The notes: generated from the letters alone by a model not told the origin. A stretch of 64,000 nt of DNA from an uncultured Gammaproteobacteria bacterium (GCA_964510885.1 CAZEDL010000002.1:707-64706); one strand, 5' to 3'. Shown: positions 2,654 to 32,211, counted from the first letter of the stretch. Made by a program: numbers and translations.

Positions 2654-2686
2654 TAATGAACTCAACACTAACAAAGGAGGTTGCCA

Positions 2687-3904
2687 ATGGCGAACCTGAA
2701 CAAGCTCGTGATCCTGGCGTTATCTGCCCTCGTCTTTTGCGCCTGCGGCCAACCACCCTCTTCGGAGGAGCATCTGGCTGACCCGAGCGTTGACATGGGG
2801 CCCGCGTCTGACCTGAAGCCTGCCGATATGGCCGGCCCGAACCCTGACATGACGCCTCCCAAGGCGGACATGGGTGAGGTCGGTACGCGGGATCCGACCA
2901 AGCACCCCTTTGCTTCGAACCACCCGTTCAACACCTCAATCGGTAAGGGGGCAACATATAAGCCTGCTGGCCTCAAGCCGGCCAAGGAGATGGGCTACCT
3001 CTTGGCGGAGGAAGACATCATCGTGATGACCCCCACGGCACCCTCCACCAAGGTGCACCTGAACACGGCGGACTGGGTTCCTGGCGCTGACCGGTGTGAT
3101 ACGACTGGACCTGTCCTGTTCTCGGTTCCGATCCCGAAAGACTTCGTTGTTGCTGGTACCTGGCCGGACAACGTAACCCCCAACTCGTGCGTCTCCATAC
3201 TTAGCGCTGACGGACGGACAGTCATCCAGACTCAGCCGTTCGCGCGGTGCACAGCGGGCATGCCGGCCACTTCCCATTACCTGGTCGATCGTGTCGACCT
3301 GTATGGAACGAGTGCCACAGGCTGCCATGGCGGCAGCGGACTCAGCGGACTCGCTGGAACTCTGCGCATGGGCGAGATGATGCCTGGCAGTGGCCACGTG
3401 CGGCACGCCCTGAAGGTCGAGATGGACGGTAGTAACTACGCCGTCTGCCTCACCCCCGGGACCTGTTTCCGCTGGCCGGCTGTACAGGCTGATTGGGCTA
3501 GCGCCTCTTACACAGGCACGAACCCTGATCTCAAGCCCGGCGCCTTGCTTGCCCTACTCGCGACGCTCGACATCAAGAGCCTCGGCCTGAAGACTGGGGC
3601 TGCAAAAGAGTTGGCCTGGACCCTCCAGCACTACGGCGCCTACGTCATAGATAACACTGGCTGGGACATCTATGCCATCGCGGTGGAACGCGGCACGAGC
3701 AGCGAGTACAATGGACGTTATGTCGAGGAGTTCAAGGACAAGTGGGGATTCGACTTCGCTCCAGCGAACCCGAACAACAACTGGTCCAAGGACATCGCGA
3801 CGATCTTCGCCGCCCTTCAGGTCGTGACCAACAATAGTCCGACCTCGATCGGTGGCCCTGGTGATCGCCTCGACCTGCCCCTCCCCGCCCTCAAGCCCCT
3901 CTAG
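2687..3904 (+). CDS. GC-rich putative secreted lipoprotein, function unknown (possible horizontal acquisition)
   Basis: About 62% GC against about 46% background; AAAGGAGG Shine-Dalgarno 6 nt upstream of the ATG; signal peptide ending in LVFCAC(G). Confidence 0.6.
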   Translation: MANLNKLVILALSALVFCACGQPPSSEEHLADPSVDMGPASDLKPADMAGPNPDMTPPKADMGEVGTRDPTKHPFASNHPFNTSIGKGATYKPAGLKPAKEMGYLLAEEDIIVMTPTAPSTKVHLNTADWVPGADRCDTTGPVLFSVPIPKDFVVAGTWPDNVTPNSCVSILSADGRTVIQTQPFARCTAGMPATSHYLVDRVDLYGTSATGCHGGSGLSGLAGTLRMGEMMPGSGHVRHALKVEMDGSNYAVCLTPGTCFRWPAVQADWASASYTGTNPDLKPGALLALLATLDIKSLGLKTGAAKELAWTLQHYGAYVIDNTGWDIYAIAVERGTSSEYNGRYVEEFKDKWGFDFAPANPNNNWSKDIATIFAALQVVTNNSPTSIGGPGDRLDLPLPALKPL

Positions 3905-11127: not shown

Positions 11128-12084
11128 ATGCGGTGTTTGGTTTTGATAACAGTCCTAGCTGTCGGGTGCCAGGCACCTGACAGCTGGATCCCTCCTGAAA
11201 CCTGTTACGATGGCGTCGAAGATACCGGCGAGACCGGTGTCGACTGCGGGGGCACATGCCCCCAAGGGTGTGGTCCGCGCCAGTGCTTCGCCGATGACTC
11301 GTGTTGCAGCAGTGACGACGACTGCGCCACCGGCCTTAAGTGCCGGAGCGGGTTCTGCGGCGTCAGGGCCTGTGCGGATCAGACCGACTGCGCCGACGGG
11401 TTCACCTGCAGTGCAAACTCGCCCGATGCAGCCAAGTTCTGTAGCTATAGTGACGGATGCTCCGATGGCACACACACCATCGGGCTCGGAGAGACCGATG
11501 TGGACTGCGGTGGGGCGATTTGCCCCCTCTGCAAAGAGGGGAAGCACTGCTACCAGAACATCGACTGCGACTGGTCGGTCGGCCTCGTGTGCGGCGCAGG
11601 CAACATCTGCCAACGGCTCGCATGTTCCGACAACGGCGCGTCATGTGACAACGCCCTGCACCCTCCGGCACGGCCCTGGTTCACCTGCCAAGCCGGGACG
11701 TGCACCGCTCCGTCATGCCGCGATGGGGTGAAGAACGGCATTGAGACGGACGTGGACTGCGGCGGAGAGAGTGGCACCGGCCCTGGGTGCAATTCCACCT
11801 GCAGACCGGGCCAGAAGTGCGGCAGGTACTGGGACTGCCTGGACCGCGGCGCCTGCAACGCAGGCATCTGCCAAGCTCCCACCTGCACCGACGGGGTGAA
11901 GAACGGGGCCGGGGTGAAGACTGAGTGGGGTATCGACTGCGGCGATCAATCCGGGACGTGTCCCGGATGCCACAGTAACACCCCTTGCCAACAGAACTAC
12001 CACTGCGCCAGCGGCGTCTGCCACCAGTGTGCGTTGGGGGACCACAGTCCACCCTGCACCGCCACTGGGAGTTACTGTCAGTAA
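11128..12084 (+). CDS. GC-rich cysteine-rich secreted lipoprotein (about 60 Cys, repeated DCGG/CxxGxC modules)
   Basis: About 65% GC; AGAGGAG Shine-Dalgarno; signal peptide with lipobox LAVGC; repeated 'TDVDCGG..C' units. The many overlapping antisense ORFs in the track are GC artefacts. Confidence 0.6.
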   Translation: MRCLVLITVLAVGCQAPDSWIPPETCYDGVEDTGETGVDCGGTCPQGCGPRQCFADDSCCSSDDDCATGLKCRSGFCGVRACADQTDCADGFTCSANSPDAAKFCSYSDGCSDGTHTIGLGETDVDCGGAICPLCKEGKHCYQNIDCDWSVGLVCGAGNICQRLACSDNGASCDNALHPPARPWFTCQAGTCTAPSCRDGVKNGIETDVDCGGESGTGPGCNSTCRPGQKCGRYWDCLDRGACNAGICQAPTCTDGVKNGAGVKTEWGIDCGDQSGTCPGCHSNTPCQQNYHCASGVCHQCALGDHSPPCTATGSYCQ

Positions 12085-25470: not shown

Positions 25471-26985
25471 CTAAATTTTCTTATTAAGCCCAATGGCTTC
25501 GATGATTTTACCCGGCGTAAGATCAGCAAACTTAGGGTCGCGGTCGGGCTGAGAGTAGAGTACGGTATAAATTTCTGGAAGCATCGGCAGCATCATTTCA
25601 TTCAACGTAAGCTGCTTGGACAGGCGCAGAAAATCGGCCACGCCTAGGCGCGGTTCAAGCATAAGATCAATGCCAGTGGCTGGCACAACTTCTGGGCCGG
25701 TATGCGGGAGGCAGGCAAGCATCATGCCGTCACCGCCTAATTCCTTAGTCTGCACGGGTTCGACTGCTTCGGCTTCGTCTAAGTTTCCTACGCGGCGGAG
25801 CCACTCCTGCCAGGCAGTTTTTGATCTGGTTAAATCATTAACTTGAGAAAATCCACCCAAGCATTTCATGCCGTAGTAAAGCGAGATAATAATATAACAG
25901 AGCGTCATGCTCGGGAAAATTTCTTTGGTAGCGAGGCCTTTACTAATCGCGTCGGGGGTAAGCGGATAGACTTGGGTACCATCATCGGAACGAAGCTCGT
26001 CGCCTTTCAAAAACAGCTGCACGCGGCGCATATTCTTGTCTATAGCCCAAAACAGGAAGGTGCCCCAATTATTTTCAATAGAAAAAGCGCCCGGGATATT
26101 ATTAAATAATTCACGGAACAGGCGACGACTTTCGGTATCAAATAAGAACTGATGGATGAGCGAGGCTGTATCTTTGAAATGAATAGTTTGCAGGAGTTCT
26201 GTAACAATCGTTTCGATTTCAATATAAATTACATCCGGCATCAGGCCGTCTGTCTGCTTGAAGAAGTGCTGCCAGAGGCGAAAATTGATTTTGGTTATCT
26301 GCGAGCAGATATCCGGATCGTTAATTACATCAGCGGCACCGAAGTAGGTTTTTAGAATCTCAATAACTTTCTGGCCTTTATCAGCGGGGATTTCTTTGCG
26401 GGCAATCTTTTTTTCGAGTTCGGCGCAGGCGCGATCTAAATTTTCTTGCGAATAGGCTGGGGCGGTGTAGACCGTGGCCATTTTACTTTTATCCGGCGAG
26501 AGCGGTACCCTGAGCAAGGTATTTGAATCAGCGGCATCCGGATGCAACACAACTCCACGCGGGTACGAGGAGTTGTTCATGGAGACCGTGGCAAAGGAAA
26601 AATCGATGAGATAGCGCCAATTTGGATGGCTCTTCTCAAGCAGCGGGAGCCCGGTGATGATATTGGAGTTTAAAAAAAAGGGATGGGTGACCGGGCCATG
26701 ATGATCGGCGGTCGAAACCAGCGGGAGTTCCCGGAGCTGGGTAGCCACACCGGCAGCCACTTCAGGGCCGAGGCGGGCCGCGAGCAGGCGCTCAACCACG
26801 GCAATCAGTTCGGGCTTGCGCGCATCGAGGCGCGGACTTTTATTGATATCTAAAAAATCTTGGGTATAGGAATACAGGGTTTTGTCCCCGTGCTTTTTCA
26901 TGATTTCGCCCAAAATCGGGCGGCGTTGCCAAATAATCTCTTCGAGTTCTGTAATCAAACTACCAGTAGGATCACCATCTCCCAT
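25471..26985 (-). CDS. Hypothetical protein (504 aa), no recognisable motif
   Basis: Long ORF with native-like composition and its own conserved-type promoter. Confidence 0.5.
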   Translation of the reverse strand: MGDGDPTGSLITELEEIIWQRRPILGEIMKKHGDKTLYSYTQDFLDINKSPRLDARKPELIAVVERLLAARLGPEVAAGVATQLRELPLVSTADHHGPVTHPFFLNSNIITGLPLLEKSHPNWRYLIDFSFATVSMNNSSYPRGVVLHPDAADSNTLLRVPLSPDKSKMATVYTAPAYSQENLDRACAELEKKIARKEIPADKGQKVIEILKTYFGAADVINDPDICSQITKINFRLWQHFFKQTDGLMPDVIYIEIETIVTELLQTIHFKDTASLIHQFLFDTESRRLFRELFNNIPGAFSIENNWGTFLFWAIDKNMRRVQLFLKGDELRSDDGTQVYPLTPDAISKGLATKEIFPSMTLCYIIISLYYGMKCLGGFSQVNDLTRSKTAWQEWLRRVGNLDEAEAVEPVQTKELGGDGMMLACLPHTGPEVVPATGIDLMLEPRLGVADFLRLSKQLTLNEMMLPMLPEIYTVLYSQPDRDPKFADLTPGKIIEAIGLNKKI

Positions 26986-27036
26986 ATAGAGAATTAAGTA
27001 CGTTAACTGTCTCCTTTTAGAAATAGCTAAACCCTC

Positions 27037-27065
27037 AGAGTACTCTGATTAGGCTTTTTTGTCAA
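27037..27065 (-). promoter_or_regulatory. Promoter (minus strand) TTGACA-17-TACTCT for the 504-aa gene
   Basis: CTTGACAAAAAAGCCTAATCAGAGTACTCT read on the minus strand. Confidence 0.45.
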
Positions 27066-27267
27066 GCAGGTTTCACTTTTTTGAGACCTTTTTAAGAAGG
27101 ATTGGCGTAGCACTAAGCTTATCGAAATAAGCGCACTGGAACGCCCGTGAGAGTGACCGCGTGCCAAGAAGGCAGCGGGTCTCGCGGGGAAAGGCCCAAC
27201 CTGCCGAGCCGGGCGCGGGGCGCTGGCTGGGGAGGTATGGGTGTGTGGTGGGAGGAGGGGGAGCTCG

Positions 27268-28428
27268 CTACCGCGGGAAGAAGGCCTGGGCCAGCTGGTG
27301 GCCCATCTTGTTGCTCCACACGGCCTCACGCTTCCCACGCAGGATGGCATGGCAGCCGTTGCCGCTGCCCTCGAGGCCCGCGACGTTCGCCTGCTTGCCA
27401 CCGTAGCTGTTGGGGGCGTTGAAATGCCAGGGCTCACCCAGCTCGGTGCTGAGCGAGAAATACGTAGCACCCACGGCCTCCATGGCCTGGAACAGGAGGC
27501 GACGCTCATACTGGGCCTCCCGGAAGATCTCCGGCGTCACGTTGGCGACCCCCAGCTCGCTCAGGTAGCGGCGCAGGATCGGATCGGCGGCAACCTCTCC
27601 AGCATAGACCTCGGGAGTGACGTTCTCCAGGTCGAAGTAGTTGATGACCGCCGGGGAGGCGATCTGATATCCAGGGCGCGCCGTGTAGTCGAAGGGCACG
27701 CCGAGGTTGACGTAGCGGCTGGTCTTGGTATCAATCATCCAGAGATCCACGCTCCCACCGTTGCCGTGGGCGGTGACCGCGTCCTTCTGGAGCGACAGGT
27801 TGTTCTCGCCGAGGTTGGCACGGAAGGTCAAGAGCAGCGTCGCCGCCTCGTCGACGCTCTTGCTGAGCTGTGCGGCGGCGCTCGTCAGCTCCTCGGCCTC
27901 TGAGCCGGTGAGGAGCTTCTGCTTGACATCGTGGAACGTATCGTTCTCGACGACGGCGCAATAGCTGCCGACGTCGTCTGCCTTGATCCCGACATTCAGC
28001 TCGTCGTAGATCGACATGGCCTCGCTGGTCAGGCCGAGCGCACCCATGATCTGCCGGCGCAGGTAGGCCCACAACTCGCGCTGGACCCAGTAGGGACGCC
28101 AGCCGTCGACCACCACCAGGCGGCGATCGTAGGGCGCAAGCAGAAGGTCGGCCTCGACGAGCATGTGGGCCACCGGGGCGCGGACGATCACCTGATCGGG
28201 CGCGCCGGGCAGGCCGGTCGGGTAGTGGACGCAGAGGCCAGGGGTTGCGCCCCGGGAGTAGAGCGGGTGCGTCATGGTCTCGGTGACGAGCACCATGGGG
28301 TCTGGGGCTGACTGCTCGAGGACACTCGTCGGCACGTTGCGGTAGCCGCTATCATCCCCCTCCAGCAGGCTAGTGAAGGAATTGATAGGACGGGTGATGG
28401 GCAGATCGGTCTTGAGGTACTTGTTCAT
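27268..28428 (-). CDS. GC-rich VanX-like D-Ala-D-Ala dipeptidase family (peptidase M15D) protein with extra N- and C-terminal regions
   Basis: LVVVDGWRPY (compare VanX LLWDGYRP), SVDLWMID (Asp of the metal site) and EPWHF (compare VanX EWWH); about 64% GC; AGGAG Shine-Dalgarno; start taken at MNKYLKT. Confidence 0.6.
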   Translation of the reverse strand: MNKYLKTDLPITRPINSFTSLLEGDDSGYRNVPTSVLEQSAPDPMVLVTETMTHPLYSRGATPGLCVHYPTGLPGAPDQVIVRAPVAHMLVEADLLLAPYDRRLVVVDGWRPYWVQRELWAYLRRQIMGALGLTSEAMSIYDELNVGIKADDVGSYCAVVENDTFHDVKQKLLTGSEAEELTSAAAQLSKSVDEAATLLLTFRANLGENNLSLQKDAVTAHGNGGSVDLWMIDTKTSRYVNLGVPFDYTARPGYQIASPAVINYFDLENVTPEVYAGEVAADPILRRYLSELGVANVTPEIFREAQYERRLLFQAMEAVGATYFSLSTELGEPWHFNAPNSYGGKQANVAGLEGSGNGCHAILRGKREAVWSNKMGHQLAQAFFPR

Positions 28429-28583
28429 GACTCGCTCCTGAAAAGGTTGAGGACGTTGGTAGGGACCGGGGAAAACTAGGCTAACATAAGCCCACTTTTC
28501 CCCGGTGTTTCTTCCTAATAACCACACAAATTGTAAAGAACTTGCCTATATTAAGCCAAATTTTGGCAAAATATAACCACTTA

Positions 28584-28612
28584 TAATAGCACAAAATAGC
28601 GAAAAAGTCAAG
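28584..28612 (-). promoter_or_regulatory. Promoter (minus strand) TTGACT-17-TGCTATTAT upstream of the VanX-like gene
   Basis: CCTTGACTTTTTCGCTATTTTGTGCTATTAT; conserved TTTTGTGCTAT extended -10. Confidence 0.5.
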
Positions 28613-28643
28613 GTCTTCGTGGCCGTAGCGCGGTAAATAACTC

Positions 28644-28783
28644 TCATTCTGAGTGAAACGAAGAATCTCTGTCGGTCGGTATAGTGGCCAATTGGACAGA
28701 GATCCTTCACGTTCGTTCAGGATGACAGGTGAATTTCGTAATTCAAAGCTCTAAGGGATCCTTCGCTACGCTCAGGATGACAG
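28644..28783. repeat. Mosaic palindromic element, copy R6 (TCATTCTGAGTGAAACGAAGAATCTCTGTC...GACAGAGATCCTTCACGTTCGTTCAGGATGACAG + TTTCGTAATTCAAAGCTCTAAGGGATCCTTCGCTACGCTCAGGATGACAG)
   Basis: Two tandem hairpin modules including the TTTCGTAATTCAAAGCT inverted-repeat module seen in R4. Confidence 0.8.
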
Positions 28784-28852
28784 GATGGGGTATTATTCGC
28801 CAAGCTAAATGATCATAACTAAAAATTTTTGGCCTAACGTTAGAATAAAAAA

Positions 28853-28891
28853 ACAGCTCTAACCACAAGGATCAGAGCTGTTTTTGATAAT
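28853..28891. terminator. Bidirectional rho-independent terminator 3' of the ATP-grasp gene
   Basis: AAAAAAACAGCTCT-AACCACAAGGATC-AGAGCTGTTTTT. Confidence 0.7.
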
Positions 28892-28892
28892 T

Positions 28893-31313
28893 TTATTTTT
28901 CCCGCACCCGCTTCAGCGACAAACTAATGATCGTCTCTAGTAAATTCCCAAATTTCAGCTTGGTCAATTTGGCTGATTTCGCAAAATCTGACTCTTCATG
29001 CAGAATCGGATTCGGATCTACTTCGAGGACATAGGGGTTGCCATCTTTATCGACCCGGATGCCAACACGGCCATAATCTTGGCAATGGAGAATACGATAG
29101 GCATCGATGGCAATCTCGGTGACTAATTTTTCAAGTTTAGGGCTAATCCGTTTAACCGGATTTTCAATGTTAATGTGGTGATACGGCTTTGGCAGGGTGC
29201 GGCGCGCTTCTTGCGTATAGATGTGCCAATAGCCGGGCGGGAGCTTGGTGAAAACAGAGCGGTACAGCGGCAACACGCGCAAGTCTTCGTTATTGTTGCC
29301 GAGGATCGAGACTTCATATTCATCGCCCTCGATATATTCTTCAACCAAGGCAGTCTGTTTCAAATCAACTACGACGCGTCGGAGCTGTTGTTCGAGTTCA
29401 GCGGCAGTTGTCACCACCGAATCATTGGTAATGCCGAATGAATTATCACTCTGACTTGGTTTTACAATCAGTGGGAATTGCAGCGACTTATCAAGCTCTT
29501 CACCAAAGTGACAGATGTAATCCCATTTGGGAGTCGGCACTTTATGAAATGCCAAAATCTTTTTGGCCATCACTTTATCGCGGCAGAGGGTGAGGGCAAA
29601 TGAACTTGAACCAGTGAACGGCAGGCGGACTGATTCGAATAGTGCCGCTACCTGCGATTTAAGGCGGCGGTTATTGCCGATCTCTTGGGCGGCATTGAAC
29701 ACCAGGTCAATATCGCTTTCGCGGATGTCGTAGAGGGACCGGCTGAGGTTATTAATATCTAAAAAAGTTGTTTTGTACCCAAGTGCTGTCAGCTGTTCTT
29801 GCACACTTTTGGCGGTCATGCGCGAGGAGATGCCGCTGCTATTAATGGCGACATGGCTTTTGGTGCCGGCCACCCCCACATGCAACTGGCGCTGATCGCT
29901 GAGCGACAGCTGGCGGACTTTGGCAAGCTTAGCCGCCTGCAAGATAAAATTCTTTTTTACCACTGCGGCCGAGAACGGATTGTCGCGAGCGGTTTTGCCG
30001 AGCGAGGACTCGTCATCGAATTCTACGATCTTGTAATTAATATGCCGCAAGGCATCTTGCAAGTTATCCTGAGCATCGATAAGGTTGTCACCGGCCACGG
30101 TGAGCCAGCCCAAACGATCATAGCCTTCGGGCGGGCGGAGAATCGCATCGCCAATACCGTAAAAGAAAAAGATTTCTTCAAAATACGACTTGTCTTTGAG
30201 CATCGGCGACACATCAAGTTCGGCCAAGACGCCGGAGGTCGGCACTTGAAAATCCCAGCCGGCCACATAGCGGAACGGTACCTCTGGTTTGTCGATTTTT
30301 ATATATTCGCCAAGCGCAATGTGTACGGCCGCTTCCACCATATCCACGCCCCAGGCGCTTTTGATATATGAGTAGACATAATCGCCGCCCATACGCATAT
30401 TGACTTCGATCGGATAGGCACCGTCGGGGGCGATTTTGGCCTCGAAGTGAATACAGCCGTTTTCAACGCCAGCTTTTTCGAGGGTTTCTTCGGCCATAGC
30501 CACCAGATCGCGCTGCGCTTTTTCTGGCAAGCCCGAGGGCACGGCCTGCCCGGTATCGACGAAAAAGCGATCATGGGTTTTATTAAAATTATCCGCCACG
30601 GAGTGGAATTTGACCTTGCCATTTTGGAGCAGCATGTCGATATCCACCTCATCACCGTCAATAAACTCTTCGATCATCAGTTCGAAATTTTCCCACTCTT
30701 CAGCCAGGCCAAGGTGTTTGATATTATTTCTAATATAACTATAGGTTTCTTCAAGCTCGGCGCGATTGTTGACGCGCAGCACATAGGCACTGCACACGCC
30801 AAAAATTGGTTTCACGACCAATGGATACTTCAGTTTTTTCTCGAGAGCGGGAATATCGCTTTTGCTTTTAAGAAGCAGGTGGCGCGGCGCTTTGATGCCA
30901 TTTTGCGCGCAAAAATCGCGGAATAAATATTTATTCTTCACGCGTTTGGCCACTTCGTATGGAATGCCGATGAACCCAAAGGCATCAACCAGGCTCGAGG
31001 TGAGCATCACGGCTTCATCCCAAAATGTGACCACGCCACCCAGCTTAACATTCTGGTGGTCGCGCATAAAATTGGTGACGGCGGCAATACATTGCTTGGT
31101 GCTAGCGAGGTCTGCCAAAATCCAGTGGTCAACATAGGGCTCGCCCCAGGCTGCTTTGTCTTTGGCGAGACACACCACGCGCAGATTCATTTTTTTGAGG
31201 CGCTGGTAGATAAATTTTTTCCCGGGGCTCATGGAGTGAACCAGCAAGATTGTTTTTTGAGGAATAGTGGGCATAAAATTAAAAAACCCAAAAACTAAAT
31301 TATTTTTGGGCAA
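28893..31313 (-). CDS. Two-domain ATP-grasp ligase (N-terminal ATP-grasp plus C-terminal D-Ala-D-Ala-ligase-like domain), 806 aa
   Basis: The C-terminal half has Ddl-like motifs (PLIVKPS..., EEYIEGDEYEVSILG, GRVGIRVDKDGNPYVLEVDPNP); the N-terminal half has a second ATP-grasp core (PLVVKP..., MIEEFIDGDEVDIDML, IEVNMRMGG). Confidence 0.7.
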   Translation of the reverse strand: MPKNNLVFGFFNFMPTIPQKTILLVHSMSPGKKFIYQRLKKMNLRVVCLAKDKAAWGEPYVDHWILADLASTKQCIAAVTNFMRDHQNVKLGGVVTFWDEAVMLTSSLVDAFGFIGIPYEVAKRVKNKYLFRDFCAQNGIKAPRHLLLKSKSDIPALEKKLKYPLVVKPIFGVCSAYVLRVNNRAELEETYSYIRNNIKHLGLAEEWENFELMIEEFIDGDEVDIDMLLQNGKVKFHSVADNFNKTHDRFFVDTGQAVPSGLPEKAQRDLVAMAEETLEKAGVENGCIHFEAKIAPDGAYPIEVNMRMGGDYVYSYIKSAWGVDMVEAAVHIALGEYIKIDKPEVPFRYVAGWDFQVPTSGVLAELDVSPMLKDKSYFEEIFFFYGIGDAILRPPEGYDRLGWLTVAGDNLIDAQDNLQDALRHINYKIVEFDDESSLGKTARDNPFSAAVVKKNFILQAAKLAKVRQLSLSDQRQLHVGVAGTKSHVAINSSGISSRMTAKSVQEQLTALGYKTTFLDINNLSRSLYDIRESDIDLVFNAAQEIGNNRRLKSQVAALFESVRLPFTGSSSFALTLCRDKVMAKKILAFHKVPTPKWDYICHFGEELDKSLQFPLIVKPSQSDNSFGITNDSVVTTAAELEQQLRRVVVDLKQTALVEEYIEGDEYEVSILGNNNEDLRVLPLYRSVFTKLPPGYWHIYTQEARRTLPKPYHHINIENPVKRISPKLEKLVTEIAIDAYRILHCQDYGRVGIRVDKDGNPYVLEVDPNPILHEESDFAKSAKLTKLKFGNLLETIISLSLKRVREK

Positions 31314-31583: not shown

Positions 31584-32156
31584 TCAGGCCTTCCTTTTTG
31601 GCGCTTGCCTCGACATGGCTTGGGCATCTTTGCCCTTGCCATAGCCGATGTAGGCGCCGATCGCCAGCGCAGCCATGAAAGGCCACGAGACGACCGGAAA
31701 TTTGAGGATGCTGCCGGAAGCAATTCCGAGCAGCAGTGAAGCGACCATCATGGCCGCGATCCCAAACGCTGCCCCGATCACAACGCCCAAACAGACACCA
31801 AGCCCGGGGGCAAGATCCACATCCGGCTTTGACAGCTGGGGTGGCGGGCGGCGAACTGGATAATTGTTATGGTCAAGTTCGACCATCTGCCCATCCGGAC
31901 CCATAACGGTCCGGACGTGGCCGTGGCCGTGCGCGCCGTGGTGATCACCACCGTGTGGATCATGGTGACCATGGTGGTCGTGGCCGTCACTGTGACCGTT
32001 GTCGGTATGGGCCGGGTGGCCGTGATGGGGGGCCTCCTGACCGTGATCGTGATGATCGTGGTCATGGTGGCCGGCAGGGCCACCATGATGATCGTCATGA
32101 CCATCGTGCTCGTGATCACCATCAAAATCATCATCGTCATCGCTGTCGTCGCTCAT
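31584..32156 (-). CDS. GC-rich His/Asp-rich low-complexity protein with two C-terminal TM helices (putative metal-binding membrane protein)
   Basis: MSDDSDDDDDFDGDHEHDGHDDHHG...HGHGH region then LGVCLGVVIGAAFGIAAMMVASLLLGIA; AAGGAGG Shine-Dalgarno; about 60% GC; start taken at the second Met. Confidence 0.55.
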   Translation of the reverse strand: MSDDSDDDDDFDGDHEHDGHDDHHGGPAGHHDHDHHDHGQEAPHHGHPAHTDNGHSDGHDHHGHHDPHGGDHHGAHGHGHVRTVMGPDGQMVELDHNNYPVRRPPPQLSKPDVDLAPGLGVCLGVVIGAAFGIAAMMVASLLLGIASGSILKFPVVSWPFMAALAIGAYIGYGKGKDAQAMSRQAPKRKA

Positions 32157-32211
32157 GTATACCTCCTTGCCAATCATCGGGTTCGCTGAGGACAGGCAAA
32201 AAGATAGTTAT

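Follow-up and report, generated by a model that had tools for sequence, protein, structure and literature searches.

A three-gene locus in the DNA of an uncultured bacterium (GCA_964510885.1, CAZEDL010000002.1:707-64706; the whole 64,000-nucleotide (nt) stretch is referred to here as the window) combines a fused double ATP-grasp ligase of 806 amino acids (aa), an enlarged VanX-like zinc hydrolase and a 504-aa protein from an unannotated family. We propose that the VanX-like and 504-aa genes constitute a functional two-gene module that pairs a hydrolase with a ligase activating amino acids. Both enzymes would work on D-amino-acid or D-Ala-D-Ala-type peptides, belonging either to the envelope or to a small metabolite, and the double ligase would be independently transcribed and loosely associated; we put the probability of this reading at about one half. 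It is favoured by the recurrence of the VanX-like/504 pair, the envelope-type neighbours and domain fusions of the 504 family, the context of VanX-like genes elsewhere, the invariance of the VanX catalytic residues and the separate transcription signals of the locus.

The three open reading frames (ORFs) named in a preliminary description of the window (28893-31313, 27268-28527 and 25471-26985) are co-oriented on the minus strand, as described, and each has many homologues at E<1e-60; they are therefore real genes. Source names on homologues place the host in the candidate phyla radiation (CPR, or Patescibacteria), nearest to Magasanikbacteria. Two Logan contigs, both from run SRR16481186 and independent of the window assembly, served as a cross-check: one (L001) reproduces the 806-aa gene and the other (L005) the VanX-like/504 junction, so this junction is no artefact of the window assembly. 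The coding features are as follows.

25471-26985, minus strand: 504-aa protein of a family spread across the CPR but unannotated, its fold BshC / class I aminoacyl-tRNA synthetase-like, a putative ATP-dependent amino-acid ligase
27268-28428, minus strand: enlarged VanX-type (LAS/M15D-like) zinc hydrolase, 386 aa, identified by active-site residues and fold
28893-31313, minus strand: fused double ATP-grasp ligase, 806 aa, identified by Pfam ATP-grasp_4, LAL_C2 and Dala_Dala_lig_C
30021-31313, minus strand: N-terminal half of the double ligase (residues ~1-430), L-amino-acid-ligase (LAL)-like ATP-grasp plus LAL_C2, identified by PDB match and motif residues
28893-29906, minus strand: C-terminal half of the double ligase (residues ~470-806), D-Ala-D-Ala ligase (Ddl)-like, non-canonical ATP-grasp, identified by PDB match and NCBIfam

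Gene order was compared across ~100 related loci in all (L002-L100), with 80 genomes or loci sampled via the 504 family. The preliminary description had envisaged a ligase next to a D,D-dipeptidase-type hydrolase, and had named a lack of synteny of the trio in relatives as a refuting condition. None of the ~100 loci contains the trio as a unit, which comes close to such a refutation, but the general idea gains support, as the VanX-like/504 pair recurs, the 504-aa protein is ligase-like and carries informative fusions in its family, and VanX-like genes elsewhere lie beside a ~440-aa ATP-grasp and a pyridoxal-phosphate (PLP) enzyme. The pair is present in 12 genomes (the window, L006, L007, L009, L020, L025, L029, L038, L039, L043, L048 and L060), with 0-1.1 kb between the two genes, which are divergent in L006 and convergent in L020. 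Their adjacency takes at least five arrangements, and the VanX-like proteins involved are 24-60% identical. Nine of the 80 loci sampled via the 504 family have a VanX-like gene beside the 504 gene, where ~0.27 would be expected by chance with a single, randomly located copy in each ~1 Mb genome (Poisson 2e-11). Also found close to 504-family genes are canonical Ddl (5 loci), a penicillin-binding protein (PBP) transpeptidase (5), DUF2156/LPG_synthase_C (5) and a CphA-like ATP-grasp (1); a neighbour of the VanX-like, Ddl, PBP, DUF2156 or CphA-like kind thus occurs in 25 of the 80.

The double ligase behaves differently. Besides the window, just one of the 80 sampled loci, that of the closest relative (L016), has a gene of its family next to the 504 family; the genes there run double ATP-grasp, 504 paralogue, 504, canonical Ddl, NIF3-like and RuvA. 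The order in L097, which has neither a VanX-like nor a 504 gene, is isoleucyl-tRNA synthetase (IleRS), ATP-grasp, SET, NIF3-like and RuvA, and in both L097 and L098 the 806-family genes stand beside unrelated neighbours. The gene orders of L016 and L097 therefore place the ligase in a conserved backbone and make the adjacent slot variable.

Close VanX-like homologues in three further loci (L090, L094 and L100) lie beside a ~440-aa Ddl_C-like ATP-grasp gene and a PLP enzyme of the ornithine/diaminopimelate (Orn/DAP)-decarboxylase/Ala-racemase fold, and in protein P0272 the 504 domain is fused to a member of this ~440-aa ATP-grasp family. Through guilt by association, these contexts link ATP-dependent amino-acid ligases, racemase/PLP enzymes and a D,D-dipeptidase-type hydrolase into one coherent network. 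In a Buchananbacteria locus (L099, 7611-14094), a 461-aa protein lacking an assignment, an 807-aa double ATP-grasp, a 444-aa ATP-grasp_3 and a 439-aa Orn/DAP-decarboxylase-fold PLP enzyme follow one another. The PLP enzyme belongs to the same family as that accompanying VanX-like genes and is packed tightly against the 806-family gene; this compact four-gene cluster is a candidate operon that should be useful for the function of the 806 family.

The 504-aa protein lacks a recognizable motif, as had been noted from the sequence: comparison with Pfam, NCBIfam, PADLOC and PHROG gave no match, and Pfam searches with 37 members of its family, BshC and tRNA-synthetase models included, returned nothing at E<=5. 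An exhaustive profile search assigned the family 1093 clusters at 50% identity; members are ~50% identical across CPR lineages and share 64 invariant columns. Fold comparison identified a Rossmann-type class I catalytic fold, as in BshC and class I aminoacyl-tRNA synthetases, and we are confident in assigning the modelled fold of the family to the class I synthetase / BshC-like type. By position only, an invariant ‘DHHG’ after strand 89-93 would occupy a HIGH-equivalent place; an invariant D165-x-x-K168-M169 in the loop after strand 158-161 might be KMSKS-like, again by position only. The 504 domain is also fused to a cyanophycin-synthetase/GshAB-type ATP-grasp (P0361, P0369 and P0404; P0361 matches 7lgn at E=5e-27), to another ATP-grasp (P0272) and to a DapF/histidine-racemase-like domain (P0267; 6jis, E=1e-13). 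A literature search on BshC in Patescibacteria found nothing relevant. Paralogues of the 504 family are tandem or adjacent in 4 of the 80 loci (L016, at 627-2192, L018, L046 and L047), the L016 paralogue being 32% identical to the window protein; since BshC is a dimer, a heterodimer of 504 paralogues is conceivable.

The VanX-like ORF spans 419 aa when read from a GTG codon (27268-28527), but translation most likely begins at the ATG at 28428, 6 nt downstream of an AGGAG, giving 386 aa. Sequence scores are weak (19.7 bits against a cut-off of 27 for Pfam M15 PF01427, and 18.3 against 176 for NCBIfam). The protein nevertheless has a LAS fold nearest to VanX, and R111, H221, D228, E332 and H335, invariant in 20 sequences, profile-align to VanX R71, H116, D123, E181 and H184, thereby matching the His/Asp/His zinc ligands, the catalytic Glu and the transition-state Arg. 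The VanX-type assignment, weak by sequence, is firm by structure and active-site residues; the enlarged VanX-family homologue first described thus stands despite its sub-threshold score, and the possible lack of zinc ligands raised at that stage is answered by their retention, with the catalytic residues, on alignment to VanX. The family is scarce, with 20 proteins among 5.8 billion sequences in a word-filtered search. A signal peptide is absent, and the protein is therefore cytoplasmic.

Foreign base composition had also been reported for this gene, and it is sharply bounded. The gene has a GC content of 0.649 and a third-codon-position GC content (GC3) of 0.87, compared with 0.48 for the window and a GC3 of 0.54-0.57 for neighbouring genes, and the step is limited to about 27140-28470. 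An assembly chimera was rejected as its cause, as the independent Logan contig covers the VanX-like/504 junction; the other Logan contig terminates in a dispersed repeat, not at the GC island. Close homologues are ~53-69% GC in genomes of about 43-54% GC in every member examined, and exceed the GC of their flanks by 8-21 points in nearly every locus, so a simple recent transfer from a high-GC donor is insufficient as an explanation. At a fixed site between PolyA_pol and TsaD genes in one host lineage (L002, L004, L088 and L096), the VanX-like gene has a GC3 of 0.79-0.93. Between L002 and L004, PolyA_pol is 85% identical and the VanX-like protein 52%; between L002 and L088, the values are 64% and 70%. 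The divergence of the VanX-like gene is thus incongruent with that of its flank and implies repeated replacement, and these comparisons suggest allelic or xenologous exchange at this site from an unsampled GC-rich pool. No VanX-like homologues were found in plasmid, phage or viral-contig collections, and no convincing mobile-element marks (direct or inverted terminal repeats, tRNA or an integron-like site) were found at the edges of the island.

Two more single-gene GC islands occur in the window, both on the plus strand and without a Pfam match, at GC 0.62-0.65 against the mean of 0.48. The product of the first (2681-3904) is a putative lipoprotein of 407 aa that weakly matches a minor tail protein in PHROG (E=7e-9); as it has no similarity to the VanX-like protein, it was rejected as a paralogue. 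The second (11128-12084), between GatB and CarA, encodes a 318-aa Cys-rich repeat lipoprotein-like protein.

Three non-coding features lie between the 806-aa and VanX-like genes.

28849-28885, minus strand: intrinsic-terminator-like hairpin straight after the 806-aa gene (16-pair stem, 5-nt loop, T-run)
28583-28611, minus strand: candidate sigma-70-like promoter preceding the VanX-like gene (TTGACT-17-TATTAT, extended TG, 10/12 matches)
28465-28506, minus strand: 18-bp hairpin (inverted repeat I3) in the 5' leader of the VanX-like gene (89% complementary, 6-nt loop)

The spacer between these genes is ~360 nt long and bears repeats, and the 806-aa gene is predicted from these signals to be its own, separately terminated transcription unit. 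No terminator was predicted in the 282-nt spacer that leads from the VanX-like to the 504-aa gene. The sigma-70-like site is a consensus match only, and the promoters of CPR bacteria are poorly defined. The 18-bp hairpin sits exactly on the upstream edge of the GC island and could be a regulatory element or an insertion relic. A dispersed intergenic repeat, CCTGTCATCCTGARCG, has four copies in the window (6942, 13606, 28714 and 28769, minus strand) against 0.05 expected; two of them stand in tandem in the spacer between the 806-aa and VanX-like genes, where a short-read contig of the same sample stops.

The double ligase is common throughout the CPR. We scored 496 homologues at E<=1e-10, the best 120 of which are 47-61% identical to the window protein, and the named sources are Magasanikbacteria, Parcubacteria, Buchananbacteria and Patescibacteria; the NCBI gene call gives 793 aa, with the start at an internal Met. 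Pfam and PDB matches, together with catalytic residues kept in both halves, bear out the two complete ATP-grasp cores of the preliminary description. The N-terminal half (residues ~20-430) matches ATP-grasp_4 (PF13535, 109 bits) and LAL_C2 (PF18603, 35.8 bits against a cut-off of 29.4), and it finds its best PDB match in the L-amino acid ligase BL00235 (3vot, E=5e-28), with BacD next. As 33 family members share its ATP, Mg and catalytic residues (K168, E215/E216, H289, E291, K293, E303, N305 and R307) without exception, this half is not degenerate, a concern voiced when the fusion was first described.

The C-terminal half is Ddl-like, as described, but non-canonical. Residues ~490-800 match Dala_Dala_lig_C (PF07478, 112 bits against a cut-off of 24), with Ddl 3r23 (E=1e-22) and Escherichia coli DdlB as best PDB matches, but curated full-length Ddl scores fall under their cut-offs (170 bits against 243 for NCBIfam PRK01372; 135 against 246 for TIGR01205) and substrate residues are not retained. 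In a HMMER alignment to 1iov, DdlB S150 corresponds to N624 and Y216 to R705 (E15 lies outside the aligned stretch), and family members have W, Q, F, E or R at position 705. The Ddl N-terminal domain (PF01820) is not matched here but gives 108 bits with the canonical CPR Ddl of L016; as the closest relative has this canonical Ddl too, the C-terminal half is not the housekeeping enzyme. K618, E658 and E659 are invariant, R749 is conserved in 28 of 33 members, and E764 and N768 are each conserved in 31 of 33. The Mg-site positions 751 and 766 covary with a carboxylate kept (E/N in 20 of 33, G/D in 5). The window protein has Gly at position 751, the first Mg-ligand position, and we rejected decay of this half on that account because G751 is paired with D766 in all five cases; judged by these sequences, the site looks compensated, not decayed. 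Literature searches found no description of an LAL-like plus Ddl-like fusion, and nothing relevant for CPR, ATP-grasp and D-alanine combined.

Around the locus, the window encodes IleRS, a His-rich membrane protein, NIF3-like, RuvA and Band 7. The His-rich gene (31584-32177, minus strand) lies between the IleRS and ATP-grasp genes, a position at which it is missing in the relative L097; its 197-aa His/Asp-rich product has a long H/D/G-rich run and C-terminal hydrophobic helices (gene GC ~0.58-0.60) and may be a metal-binding membrane protein. An Rfam scan of 24-33 kb gave sub-threshold chance matches only, and PADLOC and PHROGs gave zero matches for all three proteins. The CPR-typical 504 family also occurs in other metagenome-assembled genomes titled ‘uncultured Gammaproteobacteria bacterium’ (L016, L017, L036, L050, L061 and L082); the NIF3-like and RuvA proteins of L016, L017 and L036 are 62-72% and 49-64% identical to those of the window, and the Gammaproteobacteria labels of these six genomes appear wrong. 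L065, titled Woesearchaeota, may be mis-binned.

In mechanistic terms, we infer ATP-dependent ligation by the 504-aa protein, D-amino-acid substrates, and a functional coupling of this protein with the hydrolase together with the direction of that coupling. On this reading, IleRS, the double ATP-grasp ligase, NIF3-like and RuvA form a backbone conserved in the CPR, with a variable slot that here carries the two-gene module. The first gene, horizontally mobile and GC-rich, encodes an enlarged VanX-type zinc hydrolase, cytoplasmic and with the full VanX catalytic set. The second, encoding the 504-aa protein, would activate an amino acid with ATP and couple it to an amine or hydroxyl acceptor, building an amide or ester bond. 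The VanX-like enzyme might then be the source of the free D-amino acid, or cleave dipeptide products made wrongly or in excess. The 806-aa enzyme, being LAL-like and Ddl-like, could add two residues in succession, as a member of the same loose network with no obligatory partner. More tentatively, and at odds clearly short of even, the ~500-aa BshC-like family may be an unrecognized CPR-wide ATP-dependent (D-)amino-acid-activating ligase that serves an undescribed envelope or peptide step (such as the D-aminoacylation of a precursor of the wall or of a lipid) with interchangeable partners (VanX-like, Ddl, ATP-grasp, DapF-like racemase and DUF2156 transferase), its VanX-like partner being hyper-mobile, GC-rich and replaced repeatedly at fixed sites.

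Several observations weigh against a two-gene module. In 55 of the 80 504-family loci the neighbours are housekeeping genes only (DHH/DHHA1, IF-2, enolase, adenylosuccinate lyase and IleRS), and 11 of 14 distinct loci with a close VanX-like homologue have no 504 gene in the fetched flank. Several pair loci share one order (504 then VanX-like, in Peribacteria) and are not independent events, and an insertion hot spot at a variable slot by the 504 gene could explain part of the association. On the enzymatic side, phmmer, a profile search against PDB sequences and Pfam at E<=5 gave no sequence link between the 504 family and BshC or aminoacyl-tRNA synthetases, and the HIGH- and KMSKS-like assignments are positional guesses. 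The best structural analogue, BshC, is the putative cysteine ligase of bacillithiol synthesis, whose reaction has never been reconstituted in vitro (PMC5790435), and so offers little mechanistic help.

One alternative is that all three genes serve one pathway, in which the LAL-like, Ddl-like and 504 modules assemble a short D-amino-acid-containing peptide and the VanX-like enzyme serves for self-protection, editing or recycling. The co-orientation of the genes fits such a pathway, as do the run of double ATP-grasp, 504 paralogue, 504 and canonical Ddl in L016, the fusions of the 504 domain to ATP-grasp ligases, and the tight packing of an 806-family gene in L099 with a further ATP-grasp gene and with the PLP family of VanX-like loci. 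We consider it unlikely, given the strong terminator and the repeat-bearing 360-nt spacer after the 806-aa gene, the absence of the trio from any other locus, the adjacency of 806 and 504 genes in just 1 of 80 sampled loci (L016) besides the window, the unrelated neighbours of the 806-family genes in L097 and L098, and the appearance of the VanX-like gene as a recent, compositionally foreign insertion.

The same degree of doubt attaches to coincidence at an insertion hot spot, whereby the VanX-like gene would be one of several foreign GC-rich single-gene insertions, functionally unlinked to the 504 gene. The window indeed holds two other islands, 2681-3904 and 11128-12084; what separates the ATP-grasp from the NIF3-like gene is different in the window, in L016 and in L097; in Peribacteria, the 504 and DHH/DHHA1 genes have nothing, a VanX-like gene or a DUF2156 gene between them; and the incongruence at the PolyA_pol/TsaD site implies repeated replacement. 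However, cargo beside the 504 gene is repeatedly of D-Ala-D-Ala or envelope enzymology (VanX-like, Ddl, PBP and DUF2156), which is untypical of hot spots, the adjacency exists in at least five arrangements with VanX-like proteins just 24-60% identical, and the fusions independently link the 504 domain to amino-acid ligases and a racemase-like domain.

As a variant of the two-gene module, the 504-aa protein might be a tRNA-dependent enzyme or a dedicated synthetase paralogue that provides an aminoacyl donor for lipid or wall-precursor transferases, by analogy with mycobacterial LysX, a LysRS-MprF fusion. This is rather improbable: no anticodon-binding domain was identified in the 504-aa protein, no tRNA gene lies nearby, the link to DUF2156 is present in only 5 of 80 loci and, to our knowledge, BshC, its best match, does not charge tRNA.

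A divergent vancomycin-type (van) resistance or precursor-reprogramming cluster, the analogy drawn in the preliminary description, could be invoked from a Ddl-like ligase near a VanX-fold dipeptidase and from a survey that found many van-like matches in CPR genomes while itself noting absent synteny with characterized clusters (PMC8651080), but gene content effectively refutes it: the neighbourhood has no VanH, VanR/S or VanY/T, the Ddl-like half is far under every VanA/B/C/G model cut-off and lacks S150/Y216 equivalents, and a terminator separates the two genes, whose adjacency is unique to the window genome.

Members of the CPR make up a large portion of bacterial diversity, the majority of their conserved proteins have no assigned function, and their cell-wall biology is mostly inferred from annotation. 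Against this background, the 504 family is a large unannotated CPR enzyme family that now has a fold, with a context network that points to D-amino-acid or peptide envelope chemistry. The VanX-like protein adds a new, enlarged branch of the VanX family with an intact active site outside resistance operons, which bears on how van-like hits in CPR resistomes are read. A natural fusion of an L-amino-acid ligase and a Ddl-like ligase could serve enzymatic peptide synthesis, and a distant, abundant BshC relative with other partners could help with the problem of the BshC reaction.

Compared with known systems, the locus differs from van glycopeptide-resistance clusters in having neither the operon of VanH/VanT, a VanA/C-type ligase and VanX nor VanR/S. 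The 504 family shares its Rossmann-type fold with BshC, MshC and class I aminoacyl-tRNA synthetases at 6% identity, and is set apart from BshC by its CPR range, its VanX-like, Ddl, PBP and DUF2156 neighbours, and its fusions with ATP-grasp and DapF-like domains. The VanX-like protein, 19% identical to VanX, is about twice the size of VanX/DdpX enzymes (MEROPS M15D, LAS superfamily; 386 versus 202 aa), from which it differs by extensions at both termini and a helical insertion of ~90 residues, additional invariant Cys and His residues being located in the C-terminal extension. Its gene, GC-rich relative to the host in most loci, does not lie in a van or ddp operon. The N-terminal half of the double ligase shares the ATP-grasp_4 plus LAL_C2 architecture of L-amino acid ligases (BL00235, BacD/YwfE and RizA) and is nearest to BL00235, and its C-terminal half shares the C-terminal ATP-grasp domain of D-Ala-D-Ala ligase, with the ATP and Mg residues but without the Ddl N-domain signature or the DdlB S150/Y216 substrate residues. 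Unlike the single L-amino acid ligases and Ddl, the 806-aa protein joins both types in one chain.

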